A program made the position numbers and the translations under genes. A stretch of DNA of 64,000 bases from NCBI RefSeq assembly GCF_003334785.1, contig NZ_QOWV01000002.1; one strand, 5' to 3'. This document shows, piece by piece, positions 26,887 through 56,417 of this stretch. The stretch comes from Escherichia coli (GTDB lineage: Bacteria > Pseudomonadota > Gammaproteobacteria > Enterobacterales > Enterobacteriaceae). Numbering within the stretch: the first letter of the stretch is position 1; each line of letters opens with the position of its first letter. Below the pieces are notes generated by a model. It had not been told where the DNA came from and ran no database searches. It saw only the letters and a program-made list of their open reading frames with translations.

Positions 26887-27333
26887 AGTAAGTACAAAAC
26901 CTATTCGTTGTATGACAAATGTCACAATTCGATCATGGATAAATCGGGGCAAAAATGCAATGTTGCAGCACTATTTATCTCATATTATTTGAGGGTAATA
27001 ACCTCACATTATCCCTGAATTAAAAGTGGTAATAATAAAACATTATTTAAGAAATATCGCATGTGGAGGCGCAATATTAAATATTGTCAACCTAAAGAAA
27101 CTCCTAAAAACCATATTGAATGACACTTAATATAATTCTTAAAAATAGCCAATTACCGAATTGTTATCTTGCCTGCTATTCCGTTAGCTGTAACACTTCC
27201 TCCTGCATTATTGGAAAGCCAATATTCAATTACCATAATGTCACCTTATATTCGGAAGTTAATTTCCGTAATAACCCTTTCTCATCAACGACTGCATGCT
27301 GAGAGGGTGTGAAAAATTAAACTAAATCAGTGT

Positions 27334-27372
27334 ATTGGTAGCTAAAAAGCCAGGGGCGGTAGCGTGTCTGGA
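27334..27372 (+). promoter_or_regulatory. JUMPstart element with ops (GGCGGTAGCGTG at 27355-27366), RfaH-dependent antitermination site
   Basis: agccaggggcggtagcgtg motif about 190 bp upstream of wza; the same motif recurs at 51845-51864. Confidence 0.8.
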
Positions 27373-35137: not shown

Positions 35138-35884
35138 ATGTTGCTTAGCATAATCACTGTCGCGTTTCGTAACCTCGAAGGGATAGTCAAAACACATGCC
35201 TCGCTGGCGCATCTGGCGCAGGCGGACGATATCAGCTTCGAATGGATTGTTGTCGATGGCGGTTCCAACGACGGTACCCGTGAGTATCTGGAGAATCTCA
35301 ATAGTATCTATAACCTACGCTTTGTCAGCGAGCCAGATAACGGTATCTACGACGCCATGAACAAGGGCATTGCGATGGCACAAGGCAAGTTCGCGTTGTT
35401 TCTCAACTCGGGCGATATTTTTCATCAGGATGCCGCAAATTTTGTTCGTAAGTTAAAAATGCAAAAAGATAACGTGATGATCACCGGCGATGCGCTGCTG
35501 GATTTTGGCGACGGGCATAAAATTAAGCGTAGTGCTAAACCGGGTTGGTATATTTATCACAGCCTGCCCGCCAGCCATCAGGCGATATTTTTCCCGGTAT
35601 CCTGTTTGAAAAAATGGCGTTATGACCTGGAATATAAAGTTTCTTCTGATTACGCGCTGGCAGCTAAAATGTATAAAGCAGGTTATGCATTTAAAAAACT
35701 CAATGGCCTGGTGTCTGAATTTTCCATGGGTGGGGTATCAACCACCAATAATATGGAATTGTGTGCTGACGCCAAAAAAGTCCAACGGCAGATATTACAT
35801 GTGCCTGGCTTCTGGGCAGAATTATCCTGGCATTTACGCCAGCGTACTACCTCAAAGACGAAAGCCTTATATAACAAAAGCTGA
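35138..35884 (+). CDS. wcaE: Colanic acid glycosyltransferase (GT2)
   Basis: 248 aa. Confidence 0.9.
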
Positions 35885-36024
35885 ATATACTCGTCATACT
35901 TCAAGTTGCATGTGCTGCGGATGCGTTCGTTCACCCCAGTCACTTACTTATGTAAGCTCCTGGGGATTCACTCTCTTGCCGCCTTCCTGCAACTCGAATT
36001 ATTTAGAGTACATAAGGAAGACCA

Positions 36025-36573
36025 ATGCAAGATTTAAGCGGTTTCTCGGTGCCGAAAGGGTTCCGGGGCGGCAACGCTATTAAAGTGCAATTATGGTGGG
36101 CAGTACAGGCAACAATATTTGCCTGGTCGCCACAAGTATTGTATCGCTGGCGGGCATTTTTATTACGTTTATTCGGCGCAAAAATAGGAAAAAACGTAGT
36201 TATTCGTCCGTCAGTAAAAATTACCTATCCGTGGAAATTAACCTTAGGTGATTACGCGTGGGTCGGCGATGACGTCAATTTATATACCCTCGGTGAAATA
36301 ACCATTGGCGCACATTCGGTGATATCGCAAAAAAGTTATTTATGCACCGGTAGCCACGACCATGCAAGTCAACATTTCACCATTAACGCCACGCCTATTG
36401 TGATTGGCGAGAAATGCTGGCTGGCAACCGATGTCTTTGTTGCCCCAGGCGTCACAATCGGCGACGGCACCGTCGTGGGTGCACGAAGCAGTGTTTTTAA
36501 ATCGCTTCCGGCAAATGTGGTTTGCCGGGGGAATCCCGCAGTGGTGATACGCGAACGCGTTGAAACTGAATAA
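36025..36573 (+). CDS. wcaF: Colanic acid acetyltransferase (hexapeptide repeat)
   Basis: 182 aa. Confidence 0.9.
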   Translation: MQDLSGFSVPKGFRGGNAIKVQLWWAVQATIFAWSPQVLYRWRAFLLRLFGAKIGKNVVIRPSVKITYPWKLTLGDYAWVGDDVNLYTLGEITIGAHSVISQKSYLCTGSHDHASQHFTINATPIVIGEKCWLATDVFVAPGVTIGDGTVVGARSSVFKSLPANVVCRGNPAVVIRERVETE

Positions 36574-41935: not shown

Positions 41936-42021
41936 AATGCGAAACCGAGATGTAAATAACGACAAAAACAAAATTGGCCGTTTCGGTCAGGGCCAACTAT
42001 TGCCTGAAAAAGGGTAACGAC

Positions 42022-43392
42022 ATGAAAAAATTAACCTGCTTTAAAGCCTATGATATTCGCGGGAAATTAGGCGAAGAACTGAATGAAGATATCGCCTGGC
42101 GCATTGGTCGCGCCTATGGCGAATTTCTCAAACCGAAAACCATTGTGTTAGGCGGTGATGTCCGTCTCACCAGCGAAACCTTAAAACTGGCGCTGGCAAA
42201 AGGTTTACAGGATGCGGGCGTTGACGTGTTGGATATTGGTATGTCCGGCACCGAAGAGATCTATTTCGCCACGTTCCATCTCGGCGTGGATGGCGGCATT
42301 GAAGTTACCGCCAGCCATAATCCGATGGATTATAACGGCATGAAACTGGTGCGCGAAGGGGCTCGCCCAATCAGCGGTGATACCGGACTGCGCGACGTCC
42401 AGCGTCTGGCAGAAGCCAACGACTTTCCTCCCGTCGATGAAACCAAACGCGGTCGCTATCAGCAAATCAACCTGCGTGACGCTTACGTTGATCACCTGTT
42501 CGGTTATATCAATGTCAAAAACCTCACGCCGCTCAAGCTGGTGATCAACTCCGGGAACGGCGCAGCGGGTCCGGTGGTGGACGCTATCGAAGCCCGCTTT
42601 AAAGCCCTCGGCGCACCTGTGGAATTGATCAAAGTGCACAACACGCCGGACGGCAATTTCCCCAACGGTATTCCTAACCCGCTGCTGCCGGAATGTCGCG
42701 ACGACACCCGCAATGCGGTCATCAAACACGGCGCGGATATGGGCATTGCCTTTGATGGCGATTTTGACCGCTGTTTTCTGTTTGACGAAAAAGGGCAGTT
42801 TATCGAGGGCTACTACATTGTCGGCCTGCTGGCAGAAGCGTTCCTCGAAAAAAATCCCGGCGCGAAGATCATCCACGATCCACGTCTCTCCTGGAACACC
42901 GTTGATGTGGTGACTGCCGCAGGTGGCACGCCGGTAATGTCGAAAACCGGACACGCCTTTATTAAAGAACGTATGCGCAAGGAGGACGCCATCTACGGTG
43001 GCGAAATGAGCGCCCACCATTACTTCCGTGATTTCGCTTACTGCGACAGCGGCATGATCCCGTGGCTGCTGGTCGCCGAACTGGTGTGCCTGAAAGGAAA
43101 AACGCTGGGCGAACTGGTGCGCGACCGGATGGCTGCGTTTCCGGCAAGCGGTGAGATCAACAGCAAACTGGCGCAACCCGTTGAGGCGATTAATCGCGTC
43201 GAACAGCATTTTAGCCGTGAGGCGCTGGCGGTGGATCGTACCGATGGCATCAGCATGACCTTTGCCGACTGGCGCTTTAACCTGCGCACCTCCAACACCG
43301 AACCGGTGGTGCGCCTGAATGTGGAATCGCGCGGTGATGTGCCGCTGATGGAAGCGCGAACGCGAACTCTGCTGACGTTGCTGAACGAGTAA
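42022..43392 (+). CDS. cpsG: Phosphomannomutase (colanic acid copy)
   Basis: ORF track start 41974 trimmed to the ATG at 42022 ([15 protein letters not shown]); 456 aa; TASHNP active site. Confidence 0.9.
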
Positions 43393-46321: not shown

Positions 46322-46334
46322 GTTGCTGTTTTCG

Positions 46335-46550
46335 GTTCCGACAACGGTTGCCGGATGCGGCGTAAAACGCCTTATCCGTCCTACGGTTCTGTGCTCGGGA
46401 CCTGTAGGCCTGATAAGACGCGTCAGCGTCGCATCAGGCACTGAATGCCGGATGCGGCGTGAACGCCTTATCCGGCCTACGGTTCTGTGCTCGGGTCTTG
46501 TAGGCCTGATAAGACGCGTCAGCGTCGCATCAGGCAAAAAGCGGCAACGA
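46335..46550. repeat. Tandem REP/BIME cluster (two ~100-bp near-identical units)
   Basis: Unit gccggatgcggcgt..cgccttatccg..cctacggttctgtgctcggg..cttgtaggcctgataagacgcgtcagcgtcgcatcaggca appears twice. Confidence 0.85.
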
Positions 46551-46596
46551 ACAAAACAAACGCAGCCTCACCTGGCATCAAATTTATGAGGAAAAA

Positions 46597-51567: not shown

Positions 51568-51831
51568 TGAAAATCTGACCGAATGTAACGGTTGATAAGA
51601 AAATTATAACGGCAGTGAAGATTCGTGGCGAAAGTAATTTGCTGCGAATATTCCTGCCGTTGTTTTATATAAACAATCAGAATAACAACGAGTTAGCAAT
51701 AGGATTTTAGTCAAAGATTTCCAGGATTTTCCTTGTTTCCAGAGCGGATTGGTAAGACAATTAGCGTTTGAATTTTTCGGGTTTAGCGCGAGTGGGTAAC
51801 GCTCGTCACATCGTAGACATGCATGCAGTGC

Positions 51832-51870
51832 TCTGGTAGCTGTAAAGCCAGGGGCGGTAGCGTGCTGAAA
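51832..51870 (+). promoter_or_regulatory. JUMPstart element with ops (GGCGGTAGCGTG at 51853-51864) upstream of the O-antigen operon
   Basis: aagccaggggcggtagcgtg about 60 bp upstream of wzx. Confidence 0.8.
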
Positions 51871-51923: not shown

Positions 51924-53180
51924 ATGAATAGGATACAACGTGTGCATAATTATTTAAGGCTTAAAGATAAAATAAAAAACGTATTTTTAGGGTTATATAT
52001 ATTGCAGTTATTTAATTATATCGCGCCATTGGTAATTATCCCTATCCTGATAAAATATATTGGGTTGGGGGAATATGGGGAATTAGTCTATATTACATCT
52101 ATTTATCAAATAGTGGCTTTGTTTATTGATTTTGGCTTTACTTACACAGGACCTGTGGTTGCTGCGAGACATAAATGTGAGATCCAAAATTTACAGCGCT
52201 ATTACTCAATAGTTGTTCTTTTAAAATCATTGCTTTTTATAATTGCATTAACATGTGTATTTTTATTGTGCAGATTAAATATAGTCCACTTGTCATTTTT
52301 GGGGTTTTTGTCAATTTTTCTATGCTCTATTGGTAATATAGTATCGCCCAATTGGTTTTTGCAGGGGATTGGTGATTTTAAAAAACTTTCATACTCTCAA
52401 GTAATAGTGAGAATAACATTGTTTATCATGCTTCTTGTTTATGTCTGTAGTGGCGGAGATAATGTTTTTATCTTAAGTTTTTTACAAAATGCAACATTAC
52501 TCATATGCTGTATATACTTATGGCCAAATATTCATATTAGCCATGTTGTTCATCTTAAACCTAATGAATGCATTGTGGAATTTAAGAAGGCAGGAAATGT
52601 TTTTATTGGCGTAATAGGTACGATTGGTTACAATGGTCTAATTCCTGTGTTAATTGGAAACCTTTGCGGTAATACGAGTCTTGGTGTTTTTTCAATCGTT
52701 CAAAAAATGACAACAGCATGTCAAAGCCTAATTAATCCAATATCACAGTATATGTTATCACAAGTTTCAGAAATTAAACCTCAAGATGAACTGTTTTATT
52801 ATAGAATTAAAAAAAGTTTTTTTGTGCATTTAACAATTAGCATAATTGCATGTTTATGTTATATGGGGTTAGGGCAATATGTGGCGACTTTTATAGGTAA
52901 AGTTGACGTTTCATTTGTTATTATTTTATATGCGTCAGTAATTACAATTTTTTCATCTTTAAATAATGTCCTTGGTATACAGTTTCTTATACCGACAGAT
53001 AATGTAAAAATACTGCGAAGTATAAATGTTATAGCGGGAATTATTGTTGTTAGTTTGTCCTGGCTGTTAATATCACGCTTTGACATTCTGGGGGGGGTTT
53101 TATTAAATCTAATTGGTGAGTTTCTTGTATTCAGTATGCTAGCTTTTATTGCCCATCGTAAGTGGGGAGCGAGAGTATAA
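51924..53180 (+). CDS. wzx: O-antigen flippase Wzx
   Basis: 418 aa multi-TM protein in a low-GC region; Wzx-like N-terminus and W-F-x-Q-G motif (NWFLQG). Confidence 0.75.
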   Translation: MNRIQRVHNYLRLKDKIKNVFLGLYILQLFNYIAPLVIIPILIKYIGLGEYGELVYITSIYQIVALFIDFGFTYTGPVVAARHKCEIQNLQRYYSIVVLLKSLLFIIALTCVFLLCRLNIVHLSFLGFLSIFLCSIGNIVSPNWFLQGIGDFKKLSYSQVIVRITLFIMLLVYVCSGGDNVFILSFLQNATLLICCIYLWPNIHISHVVHLKPNECIVEFKKAGNVFIGVIGTIGYNGLIPVLIGNLCGNTSLGVFSIVQKMTTACQSLINPISQYMLSQVSEIKPQDELFYYRIKKSFFVHLTISIIACLCYMGLGQYVATFIGKVDVSFVIILYASVITIFSSLNNVLGIQFLIPTDNVKILRSINVIAGIIVVSLSWLLISRFDILGGVLLNLIGEFLVFSMLAFIAHRKWGARV

Positions 53181-54523
53181 TGAAAGTGAAGGCGGTTCCT
53201 GCTATTACATTCTATTTAAGTTTAATGCTGACAATTTTAGTGTTACTGTTTGGTAATGAACCAAATAAATCACAATATATTCTTGTTATAGCAACGATAA
53301 CAGTTTTTTATATCGCGTATATCACTAATAAAATAACTTCTCCGGCCAGCCTTCTCGTTATATCATCTTTTGTGTTTTTAGGTTGTCGACCTTTATTATC
53401 TTTGTTTGCAAACTATGATTACAGGATTGCCGATTGGTTTATTGAAGGATATATGGATGACGATGTGATTATGGCTAACTATGCTATAACATTAATGTAT
53501 TATGGTTATACATTGGGACTAATTCTATGCAGAAATACTGAAAAAATTTATCCGCATGGATCATATCCAGAGAAACAATTGCTAAAAATAAAGTTTCTTT
53601 TGACTTTATTTTTTCTGGGTTCGATAGGTATGGTTGTGAAAGGGATATTCTTTTTTAACTTTATAGAATCTAATAGTTATGTTGATATATATCAATCAAA
53701 TATAACAACGCCAATAGGTTATGATTTTCTGTCTTATTTGTTTTATTGTTCTTTTTTCCTTATATGTGCGTTTCATATACAGTTCAGAACAAATAAAAAA
53801 TTTCTTTTTATTGCGATATGCATTGCTGCATTTAGCACCTTGAAGGGTAGTCGTAGTGAAGCTATAACGTTTCTTTTAACGGTTACATGTATATATTTTA
53901 ATGAAGTAAAGACAAGAAACTTACGTTTGCTGATTACAATGATTTTTGTTTTTAGCGTCATTTTTGTGATTAGTGAATTTATCTCAATGTGGCGCACTGG
54001 AGGGAGTTTTATTCAATTAATGCAGGGTAATAATCCTGTTATAAACTTTGTATACGGCATGGGAGTATCATATCTTTCCATTTATCAATCAGTAAAACTA
54101 CAACTATTGTCAGGGGGGTATAATGTTACCTATCTATTCAGCCAGTTAATAATAACTTGCTCGTCAATATTTAATGTTAAATTGAGCTTGCCGGAAATAA
54201 GCTATAGCCATTTGGCCTCATACACAGCAAACCCAGAACTATATAATCTTGGGTTCGGACTTGGGGGAAGTTATTTAGCAGAATCGTTTTTAGCATTTGG
54301 TCTTATTGGGTGTTTCATAATACCCTTTTTACTTTTACTTAATTTAAATGTATTGGAAAAATACACAAAAAACAAACCAATCATATATTTTGTTTATTAT
54401 AGTGTGTTGCCACCTATATTATTCACACCAAGAGAGACTTTGTTCTATTTCTTCCCCTATCTTGTCAAAAGTATATTTGTTGCTTTTTTAGTTACATTAT
54501 ACATCCAGTATAAAAAGGATTGA
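53180..54523 (+). CDS. wzy: Putative O-antigen polymerase Wzy
   Basis: Multi-TM low-GC protein second in the cluster; ATG at 53180 overlaps the wzx stop (ORF track starts at the GTG at 53162); assigned by exclusion and topology. Confidence 0.6.
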   Translation: MKVKAVPAITFYLSLMLTILVLLFGNEPNKSQYILVIATITVFYIAYITNKITSPASLLVISSFVFLGCRPLLSLFANYDYRIADWFIEGYMDDDVIMANYAITLMYYGYTLGLILCRNTEKIYPHGSYPEKQLLKIKFLLTLFFLGSIGMVVKGIFFFNFIESNSYVDIYQSNITTPIGYDFLSYLFYCSFFLICAFHIQFRTNKKFLFIAICIAAFSTLKGSRSEAITFLLTVTCIYFNEVKTRNLRLLITMIFVFSVIFVISEFISMWRTGGSFIQLMQGNNPVINFVYGMGVSYLSIYQSVKLQLLSGGYNVTYLFSQLIITCSSIFNVKLSLPEISYSHLASYTANPELYNLGFGLGGSYLAESFLAFGLIGCFIIPFLLLLNLNVLEKYTKNKPIIYFVYYSVLPPILFTPRETLFYFFPYLVKSIFVAFLVTLYIQYKKD

Positions 54524-54528
54524 CGAAA

Positions 54529-55389
54529 ATGTCAGAAAAAAATGTCAGCATAATAATCCCAAGTTATAACAGGGCTCATATTCTTAAGGAGGTCATACCA
54601 AGTTATTTTCAGGATGAGACTTTAGAGGTAATAGTTATCAATGATGGATCAACAGATAATACAAATAGTGTATTAGCTGAACTGAAGGAAAAATATTCTC
54701 AATTAGTTATTTTAGAAAATGATACGAACAAAAAACAGATGTATTCTAAAAACCGAGGGATTGAAATAGCCAAAGGGAAATATATTTTTTTTGGTGATGA
54801 TGACTCTTACCTCTTACCCGGTGTTATATCTCGGTTATTGGCTACAAAATATGAGACAGGCGCTGATGTAATCGGCGCAAGAATACTCTATATGAATAAT
54901 AACGAGAAAACAATTGAAGATTGCATAAATCGACATAAAACAGAGGGGCGTTTTGTTAGTGATTTAAATAGATTGGATTTTAGTTATACATGTGATTTGG
55001 ACCATCCGATTGAATGTTTTTATGCACAGTCTATTATTCTAGCTGAAAGGGAACTAATATCGAAATATCGATTTGATATATCTTATACGGGAAACTGCTA
55101 TCGTGAGGAAACTGATTTCATGTTATCTCTTTTTATAAAAAATAAAAAATTTATATATGATTCAAAGGCTCTGTTAATAAATTTACCTCCACGAAAAGCG
55201 ACGGGAGGGGCAAGAACAGCTAATCGATTAAAATATCATTATGAAAGTTGCATAAATAATTATAGATTTTTAAAAAAATATAATGATAATTTGAATCTTC
55301 TTTCAGGACAAAAGCATGCTATATTTTACCGACAGTGTCAATTCGTTCTGCTAAAAATTAAGTCGTTTATCGGGAAGTTTTTAAAATGA
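54529..55389 (+). CDS. Glycosyltransferase family 2
   Basis: SIIIPSYNRAHIL and INDGSTDNT (GT2 DxD region); start could instead be the TTG at 54520. Confidence 0.75.
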   Translation: MSEKNVSIIIPSYNRAHILKEVIPSYFQDETLEVIVINDGSTDNTNSVLAELKEKYSQLVILENDTNKKQMYSKNRGIEIAKGKYIFFGDDDSYLLPGVISRLLATKYETGADVIGARILYMNNNEKTIEDCINRHKTEGRFVSDLNRLDFSYTCDLDHPIECFYAQSIILAERELISKYRFDISYTGNCYREETDFMLSLFIKNKKFIYDSKALLINLPPRKATGGARTANRLKYHYESCINNYRFLKKYNDNLNLLSGQKHAIFYRQCQFVLLKIKSFIGKFLK

Positions 55390-56417
55390 TTGTATATATT
55401 GCCGCGTATAATGGTTCAGGAGGGCAAGGTGGGGTGGAAAGGGTTGTTGCCCAACAATGTAACATTCTTAAAAATTTGGGGGTTAAAGTCATTATACTTG
55501 ATAAAGCATACTTCAAAATTTCTAACAAAATTCGTAACAAAAAAATACAAGTAGCACTTTATCCAATATTAGTTTCTCTTTATTTAACCTTACAAAAATT
55601 ACGTGGCGTGACGTTTAAAGTTATTGCGCATGGCTATTGTTCTCCTTTTTATAGGAATGACATCTTAATAGCTCATGGCAATATGAAATGTTATTTTCAA
55701 ACAGTCATGAAAAAAAAACCTAATCGATTGTCCGGCAGTGGTCTTTTATCTTTCTATGAGCGTTTGGCTGGATCATTCTCAAAAAATATCTGGGCTGTTT
55801 CAAATAAGGTTAAAAGTGAATGGAATGAGCTTTACAATATTAATTCACATAAAATTAAAGTTGTTCGAAATTTTATAAATCTTGAACAATTTGATTGCAC
55901 TGATGTTAATGAAGCACAATATGTGACATTTGTCGGGCGATTGGAAAAAGGAAAAGGAATAGATGATCTGTATTACATATGTAAAAATCTGCCAGATACT
56001 TCCTTCCATTTAGTTTCAAGTATTCCCGCCCCACAAAATTTTGCTTCGCTAAATAATGTTCTGACCAGCATTGCTGTCCCCTATGCGAAAATGCCAGAAA
56101 TATTTAAGAAATCCAGAGTACTTATTTTACCGTCCTATTATGAAGGATATGAGCTGGTTACTATTGAAGCGCTATGCTGTGGTTGCCCTGTGATAGGCTA
56201 TAACGTTGGTGCAATTAGAGAGTTGTATGCTGAAAGTTTTCCTGGCGTGTTTATTGCCAATAATAAAGAAGATTTAGCACAAGTAGCCTACGAACTAATT
56301 AGTCTTGATAATGAAAAATATTATCATTTGAGACAAACTATTTATAGCAAGCGTGAGCTTTTTTCTGAAGAGAGATATGCGGAAATTTTAACGGCGGCAT
56401 TTAATGAAAAAAAATAA
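55386..56417 (+). CDS. Glycosyltransferase group 1 (GT4)
   Basis: 343 aa; C-terminal E-x7-E-like region (EGYELVTIEALCCGCPVIG). Confidence 0.7.
   Translation: MIVYIAAYNGSGGQGGVERVVAQQCNILKNLGVKVIILDKAYFKISNKIRNKKIQVALYPILVSLYLTLQKLRGVTFKVIAHGYCSPFYRNDILIAHGNMKCYFQTVMKKKPNRLSGSGLLSFYERLAGSFSKNIWAVSNKVKSEWNELYNINSHKIKVVRNFINLEQFDCTDVNEAQYVTFVGRLEKGKGIDDLYYICKNLPDTSFHLVSSIPAPQNFASLNNVLTSIAVPYAKMPEIFKKSRVLILPSYYEGYELVTIEALCCGCPVIGYNVGAIRELYAESFPGVFIANNKEDLAQVAYELISLDNEKYYHLRQTIYSKRELFSEERYAEILTAAFNEKK

Follow-up and report, generated by a model that had tools for sequence, protein, structure and literature searches.

How does a stable stem-loop come to lie between wcaE and wcaF, two genes of the otherwise tightly packed colanic acid operon? 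In the window analyzed here, a 64,000-nt stretch of Escherichia coli DNA (NCBI RefSeq assembly GCF_003334785.1, contig NZ_QOWV01000002.1), the two genes, whose identities are confirmed by the RefSeq annotation of the identical region in E. coli ATCC 8739, are separated by 140 nt. A preliminary description of the locus had noted a nested hairpin at 35934-35965 in this gap and had read it as a processing or stabilizing structure, or an attenuator, rather than an intrinsic terminator. The coordinates bear out that this gap is among the few large ones of the operon, and the element of which the hairpin forms a part explains it. The operon's other large gap, between wzxC and wcaK (46322-46596, 275 nt), holds a BIME-like array of four REP palindromes, one of which is matched by the Rfam family naRNA4/CssrE (46407-46477, minus strand, 79.7 bits).

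When the window was read directly, the hairpin at 35934-35965 was found exactly as described, with an outer stem (ccccag/ctgggg) and an inner stem (cttac/gtaag) separated by tca on the left and ctc on the right and closed by the loop ttat, the complete 32-nt sequence being CCCCAGTCACTTACTTATGTAAGCTCCTGGGG. As RNA it folds into ((((((...(((((....)))))...)))))) at -15.1 kcal/mol (z -4.27), a value equaled by 0 of 200 dinucleotide shuffles. The 32-mer had no second match within the window at ≤3 mismatches, and none in 100 shuffles. A stem-loop containing GC might be an intrinsic terminator or a palindrome arisen by chance, but the terminator scan of 35600-36300 returned 0 terminator-like sites, there is no T-run 3' of the hairpin, where AUUCACUCUC comes next, and no shuffle equaled either the fold or the 32-mer. 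We therefore regard this reading as extremely improbable, in agreement with the earlier remark that the hairpin lacks a U-tract.

Folding of the entire wcaE-wcaF gap likewise gave a stable structure, a single extended stem-loop, and an inverted-repeat search showed that the hairpin caps a longer palindrome, which is imperfect and has its arms at 35885-35910 and 35988-36013. Both this larger structure and its nature as a known dispersed repeat had escaped the preliminary description. For the 127-nt element at 35886-36012, the predicted energy is -40.0 kcal/mol (z -4.6) for RNA of the wca sense strand and -52.6 kcal/mol (z -8.0) for RNA of the opposite (minus) strand, the sense strand thus being the weaker folder; the difference is attributed to G-U pairs that become C-A mismatches. 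Given so strong a strand asymmetry in predicted stability, orientation should matter for any effect at the RNA level. In silico, the apical hairpin survived once the outer stem had been melted. An alternative pairing of 35943-35954, in the loop region of the hairpin, with 36009-36020, in the Shine-Dalgarno (SD) region, lay outside both the minimum free energy (MFE) and the ensemble-dominant structures and was set aside as probably due to chance.

The core of the hairpin resembles the ERIC-PCR primers. ERICs (enterobacterial repetitive intergenic consensus elements, other names for which are IRU and RU-1) are 127-bp non-autonomous, MITE-like imperfect palindromes of enterobacteria, and no transposase is known for them. 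The family has been in the literature since 1990-91 (Sharples & Lloyd 1990; Hulton et al. 1991; Wilson & Sharp 2006). The primer ERIC1R (ATGTAAGCTCCTGGGGATTCAC) matches 35950-35971 (plus strand) with 0 mismatches and ERIC2 matches 35928-35949 (minus strand) at 21 of 22 positions, both primer sequences having been confirmed against a published paper and occurring together in 246 papers. Delihas 2007 (PMC2759123, Table 1a) gives a 127-nt E. coli ERIC/RU-1 consensus as well as a copy from Salmonella, SeRU-1; the element agrees with the former at 112 of 127 positions and with the latter at 117 of 127, both without gaps. All the characters tested here by which an ERIC is recognized are found in it: a length of ~127 bp, the central inverted repeat with the primer sites, similarity to the consensus, the imperfect palindrome, multiple dispersed intergenic copies, a position inside a transcribed region, and TA termini with a TA duplication, of which the right copy is CA here. 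TA termini and duplication of a TA target are features of the family (reviews; Delihas 2007, PMC2759123). In the hairpin we recognize the family's conserved central inverted repeat, within a typical ERIC copy. The parts of the element and its surroundings are as follows.

35886..36012, plus strand: full-length ERIC/IRU/RU-1 element of 127 bp, with the terminal TA and CA dinucleotides counted, in the orientation TATACTCGTCAT...TTTAGAGTA, 5'->3' on the wca sense strand
35934..35965, plus strand: two-tier hairpin, the central inverted repeat of the ERIC and the family's most conserved part (from the fold and the alignment of copies)
35950..35971, plus strand: ERIC1R primer site, 22/22 match
35928..35949, minus strand: ERIC2 primer site, 21/22 match, the mismatch being T at 35930
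35886..35887, no strand: left TA copy of the target-site duplication (from the alignment of filled and empty sites)
36011..36012, no strand: right-hand copy of the duplicated target site, altered to CA by T->C at 36011 (from the filled/empty and paralog alignments)
35888..35910, plus strand: left terminal inverted repeat arm (inverted repeat, basal stem in the MFE fold, compensatory pairs)
35988..36010, plus strand: right terminal inverted repeat arm (inverted repeat, fold)
35996-36008, plus strand: AU-rich box GAAUUAUUUAGAG in the right arm, putatively an RNase E site, on analogy alone
35882..35884, plus strand: wcaE stop codon TGA, with the element beginning 1 nt downstream
36014..36027, plus strand: wcaF SD sequence AAGGAAG (36014-36020) and ATG (36025-36027), both undamaged by the insertion
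35865..35872, plus strand: CCTTATAT, which belongs to the 3' end of wcaE and forms the 5' arm of a small hairpin of the ancestral allele (inverted repeat), able to pair with 36012-36017 in the filled allele

The element lies 1 nt past the wcaE stop, and the wcaF SD follows 2 nt downstream of it; the motif GAATTAT in the element's right arm is invariant in 8 of 8 aligned ERIC copies. A spurious 153-aa open reading frame (35622-36083, plus strand) crosses the element and encodes YTRHTSSCMCCGCVRSPQSLTYVSSWGFTLLPPSCNSNYLEY, a stretch that equals the 42-aa "RU-1 peptide" reading frame of Delihas 2007 (PMC2759123); gene callers could mis-annotate it.

Elsewhere in the species the repeat is ubiquitous, being present in 5426/5426 complete E. 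coli genomes at 2-20 places each (median 11). Four other E. coli copies, in the psuT-yeiL, pgk-fbaA, yeiS-preT, and ybhI-ybhJ intergenic regions, are 95-97.6% identical to the window copy. Their termini are of the TATACTC...GAGTATA type, with GAGTATA at the right end of three of the four and GAGTATG in the pgk-fbaA copy; the window copy ends in GAGTACA. The ybhI-ybhJ ERIC (L090:1003-1129, L093:1001-1127) has the same geometry, and the same orientation relative to transcription, reading TAA-A-TATTCTC against TGA-A-TATACTC in the window. The two-tier hairpin is invariant in five E. coli ERIC copies, diverged copies from Phytobacter and Kosakonia retain both of its tiers via compensatory changes, and the consensus fold of the ERIC family alignment holds compensatory changes in 8 of 26 pairs, in what is a small sample. 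Metagenome contigs also contained longer ERIC variants (L097:5148-5343, L106:643-838, L107:3898-4093, L110:2166-2361, L115:9093-9290), 196-198 bp in size, in which ~70 bp are inserted internally, following consensus position 83; they look like the "long" ERIC forms of the literature.

RefSeq places no annotation on the element in the wcaE-wcaF gap, and ERIC is not represented among the Rfam families. The one Rfam match of note was RF02818, V_AS5 (Vibrio RNA AS5), full-length on the minus strand at 43.3 bits (E 6.7e-8), the other match, isrH, being negligible. Together with the stronger minus-strand fold given above, this match could point to a gene of its own on the minus strand, for a small or antisense RNA akin to V_AS5, but the score falls far below the family's gathering threshold of 96 bits, which leaves the element outside the family, and there is no minus-strand promoter-like site in or adjoining the element, the sole match (35775-35748) lying downstream and reading away from it. 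Such a gene is most improbable here. A review mentions ERIC-like repeats of Vibrionaceae, and the match probably reflects those repeats, or a V_AS5 family modeled on one of them. Among other structured elements of the window are an algC RNA motif (Rfam, 41968-42017, 78.2 bits, above threshold), which also lies within the operon, in a 144-nt gap upstream of an ORF at 41974-43392 (presumably cpsG/manB), and a tandem pair of Sib antitoxin RNAs (11037-11179 and 11366-11514, minus strand; Rfam SIB_RNA, 142 and 149.5 bits) that represents an ibs/sib type I toxin-antitoxin pair.

We then compared the wcaE-wcaF site across E. coli. A 381-nt query spanning both junctions was fully covered in 92 of 5,426 complete genomes (~1.7%), and a query for the left junction returned the same 92. 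Nearly all non-carriers match the 381-nt query in two pieces that lie 125 bp closer together, and a few match only unrelated ERIC copies. In K-12 MG1655 the gap is 15 nt (ATATAAGGnnnnnnn, the commonest class); gaps of 15 nt are also found in O157:H7 OK1, UM146, 2013C-4538, and E. coli W, and the uninterrupted junction without the element reads GCTGAATATAAGG. Alignment of the empty site (GCTGAA-TA-TAAGG) with the filled site (GCTGAA-TA-[TACTC...GAGTA, 123 nt]-CA-TAAGG) shows an insertion of 125 bp, i.e., 123 bp plus a 2-bp duplication, which takes the gap from 15 to 140 nt.

These comparisons bear directly on whether the hairpin is a dedicated processing, stabilizing, or attenuating structure that evolved within the colanic acid operon. 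Its stability, its lack of a U-tract, and its position inside the operon in an unusually large gap would all suit such a role. However, the sequence is repeated at ~11 unrelated loci per genome, the large gap was itself made by the insertion, and the element is missing from the site in 98.3% of E. coli (5,334 of 5,426 genomes) and from the orthologous gap of ~70 other enterobacterial species. We accordingly give this origin very little credence. The suggestion of an attenuator finds no support, there being no leader peptide or leader ORF and no alternative terminator/antiterminator pair. That of a processing or stabilizing structure stands in part: it overlaps the effects that reviews report for co-transcribed ERICs of Yersinia, but the structure is the core of an ERIC and not the operon's own.

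The carriers span serotypes and sources, including ATCC 8739, TW11681, O166:H15 strains, and O6-family strains such as VE-F10 and PEC399. Across six carriers (ATCC 8739 and five divergent strains), the element shows just two changes, a 1-nt deletion and a substitution, and the right copy of the duplication is CA in all six, whereas the 254 nt of flanking wcaE and wcaF sequence differ at up to 11 sites. An element that hardly varies between variable flanks fits one origin with later recombination, and the allele apparently goes back to a single insertion event followed by recombination in the region. The window itself carries an O6-family O-antigen cluster at 52000-56000 (wzx/wzy are annotated as O6 family in matching genomes), and E. 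coli W (NC_017635.1 2265500-2268000) has a 99.9% identical O-antigen stretch yet an empty wcaE-wcaF site. The ERIC allele is therefore not just a companion of the O-antigen type, from which recombination can separate it.

As for the source of the insertion, the closest E. coli paralog was the psuT-yeiL copy at 97.6% (best place per genome record), and the source copy itself was not found. A window-specific 23-mer (GCGGATGCGTTCGTTCACCCCAG) had 0 matches in metagenome contigs, and a relaxed 25-mer found 22 metagenome loci, none in a wca context and all ≤96% identical. In the literature searched, no paper named an ERIC alongside wcaF, and the polymorphism seems to be unreported.

Presence and absence inside E. 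coli alone give no polarity, and the same pattern might arise if the element were ancestral at the site and had been precisely lost in most lineages. To assign polarity, we used wcaF loci from 80 species representatives. A 15-nt spacer, ATATAAGG, occurs in 30 of the 80, including E. whittamii, Citrobacter, Lelliottia, and Enterobacter, and most of the others have spacers of 9-23 nt. The 127 bp are repeated elsewhere, and the outgroup species do not carry the element at this site. Ancestry of the element would demand many independent and perfectly precise excisions, and its near-invariance among carriers points to a young allele; we consider this history highly improbable. Since the spacer is common across genera, we infer that the empty state is ancestral and the filled site a rare derived insertion.

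The same spacer has been filled in other genera. In Phytobacter diazotrophicus, Kosakonia sp. S29, and Phytobacter ursingii (L059:1354-1500, L064:1355-1500, L068:1355-1500), it holds an ERIC-family element that has diverged from the window copy (70-73% identity, with an alignment possible along the entire length), lies just upstream of the conserved TATAAGG, and has the orientation opposite to wca transcription. This insertion is independent of the one in E. coli. In Phytobacter massiliensis (L027), the wcaE-wcaF gap is only 22 nt. Buttiauxella, Cedecea, and Dryocola have gaps of 53-93 nt with REP/PU-like palindromes, GTAGGTCGGATAAGCG...CATCCGAC (L073:908-960, L080:1447-1500, L082:1413-1500, L085:1408-1500, L086:1434-1500). 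With ERIC and REP-like repeats present in the same spacer in several genera, the spacer has been struck repeatedly by different repeat families, which suggests that it is a preferred landing site.

In the empty allele, the spacer contributes to a small structure of its own. In K-12 and in most genera whose spacer is 15-16 nt long, an 8-bp hairpin (CCUUAUAU/AUAUAAGG; K-12 L002:401-428) is predicted that spans the wcaE stop and covers the SD of wcaF over its 5' half. Both arms of this hairpin are invariant in this comparison, so that no covariation was seen. In the window, its halves lie at 35865-35872 and 36010-36017, the ERIC insertion having fallen within the 3' arm (ATATAAGG) and split it. 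The two halves can still pair in silico in the filled allele, where they extend the ERIC stem. Judged from this modeled structure, the ancestral hairpin may act as a translational-coupling device for wcaE-wcaF. The wcaF SD reads AAGGAAG in all carriers examined, AAGGAAA in K-12, and AAGGGAA in other empty-site strains; the carrier-specific G at position 36020 may be simple hitch-hiking.

We next considered how the element would be expressed. A promoter and terminator scan found no promoter-like or terminator-like site in the gap, and a JUMPstart element lies upstream of wza, at 27328-27366 before the first colanic acid gene (ORF from 27545). With neither promoter nor terminator in the gap and a JUMPstart/RfaH-type leader ahead of the operon, the element should be co-transcribed in the wca mRNA. 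A second JUMPstart of the same ops/RfaH type, at 51826-51864, lies upstream of the O-antigen cluster (ORF from 51924).

Our preferred reading, which we hold with high confidence, is that an ERIC copy inserted at a TA in the ancestral 15-nt spacer, with the origin proposed here and a likely near-neutral effect. The copy entered at the TA dinucleotide 1 nt past the wcaE stop and just upstream of the wcaF SD, duplicating the TA, in what was apparently one insertion in an E. coli lineage, the allele now lying on mosaic flanking haplotypes; nothing in the data speaks against its identity or its insertion. Once transcribed within the wca mRNA, the element is predicted to form a long hairpin with imperfect pairing. 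In ~98% of E. coli and in other genera the operon does without it, so the element is not needed, and the insertion is most likely a neutral or near-neutral one.

If the insertion does have an effect, the likeliest is the one proposed for Yersinia. According to reviews of the work by De Gregorio et al. (2005, J Bacteriol 187:7945), ERICs of Yersinia that are co-transcribed with flanking genes cause an orientation-dependent, ribosome- and RNase E-linked drop in the upstream transcript. By the same route, ribosomes terminating at the wcaE stop would keep the left arm from pairing, the AU-rich right arm would thereby be exposed to RNase E at the candidate site, and the upstream (wza-wcaE) mRNA would be lowered relative to the downstream (wcaF onward) mRNA; the insertion may also break the tight translational coupling of wcaE and wcaF. 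By analogy, then, we infer a possible effect on mRNA decay or on wcaE-wcaF translational coupling. The window copy shares the adjacency to a stop codon that marks the ERICs of De Gregorio 2005, beginning 1 nt past the wcaE TGA, and it has the AU-rich box in the 3' arm together with the weaker-folding sense strand (-40.0 versus -52.6 kcal/mol). When a ribosome mask was applied in silico up to 35897, the outer stem collapsed, the apical hairpin persisted, and the unpaired probability of the AU-rich box went from 0.53 to 0.65, a small modeled rise. At six loci, a number too low to support a trend, orientation could be set against distance from the stop: the three loci at ≤5 nt were all "+" and the three at 9-15 nt all "-".

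A stronger claim would be that the ERIC copy has been co-opted in carrier strains as a post-transcriptional element that alters the ratio of wza-wcaE to wcaF-onward expression and is kept by selection, whether because RNase E cuts in the right arm or because the wcaF SD is masked differently. Several observations would fit this. The element is almost invariant across carriers while flanking coding sequence is not; it is placed 1 nt past a stop codon, like the ybhI-ybhJ copy, a geometry that reviews tie to mRNA destabilization in Yersinia; the conserved small hairpin that masks the wcaF SD is split by the insertion; and in the masked model the SD AGGAAG (36015-36020) pairs with CUUCCU in the right arm (35983-35988), with the carrier G at 36020 adding one pair. 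However, only 1.7% of E. coli carry the element and the operon functions without it, the invariance is equally expected of a young allele spread by recombination, and the RNA effects are all predictions with small modeled differences. We judge co-option unlikely. A more specific version, which we hold to be more doubtful still, would make the insertion a natural "switch" allele, in which the coupling hairpin is replaced by a ribosome-sensitive 127-nt structure that combines an RNase E-type site, rich in A and U, with an anti-SD of its own (CUUCCU), changing gene stoichiometry. If this were true, export and polymerase genes would be rebalanced against the downstream acetyltransferase and GDP-fucose genes in carriers such as ATCC 8739.

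Under the preferred reading of a near-neutral ERIC insertion, the chief consequence is a correction: what seemed to be a regulatory hairpin of the operon is a textbook repeat copy and is not to be reported as a new cis-regulatory RNA. At the same time, an unannotated ERIC polymorphism (92/5,426) inside a long RfaH-dependent operon provides natural pairs of filled and empty sites, e.g., ATCC 8739 versus K-12 or W, which suit testing whether ERICs of E. coli affect mRNA decay as proposed for Yersinia. With its clean alleles, its single-origin signature, and recurrent repeat insertions, the site could serve as a model for ERIC movement and target choice. The ancestral spacer hairpin over the wcaF ribosome-binding site, for its part, may mediate translational coupling.

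Among known systems, the Yersinia ERICs next to stop codons, as reviews portray them, resemble the window copy in being co-transcribed within an operon, in lying directly after a stop codon, and in having an AU-rich 3' arm, and ribosome-sensitive folding is likewise what modeling would lead one to expect of the window copy; they differ in belonging to another species and another ERIC subfamily. V_AS5 aligns over 129 model positions and has the same hairpin architecture, but the match is sub-threshold and on the strand opposite to wca transcription. REP/BIME elements are likewise short palindromic intergenic repeats that fill operon gaps, with possible effects on mRNA stability, but at ~35 bp they are GC-rich, unrelated, and RAYT-mobilized, whereas an ERIC is 127 bp with a TA duplication. 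The Correia/NEMIS elements of Neisseria are also MITE-like, with a TA duplication and long hairpin transcripts that are processed by ribonuclease within mRNAs; they differ in their unrelated sequence, in cleavage by RNase III, in their restriction to Neisseria, and in carrying IHF sites and promoters. From the ERIC/IRU/RU-1 family, by contrast, nothing structural sets the window element apart, and only its location is particular, as a minority insertion allele in the wcaE-wcaF spacer.
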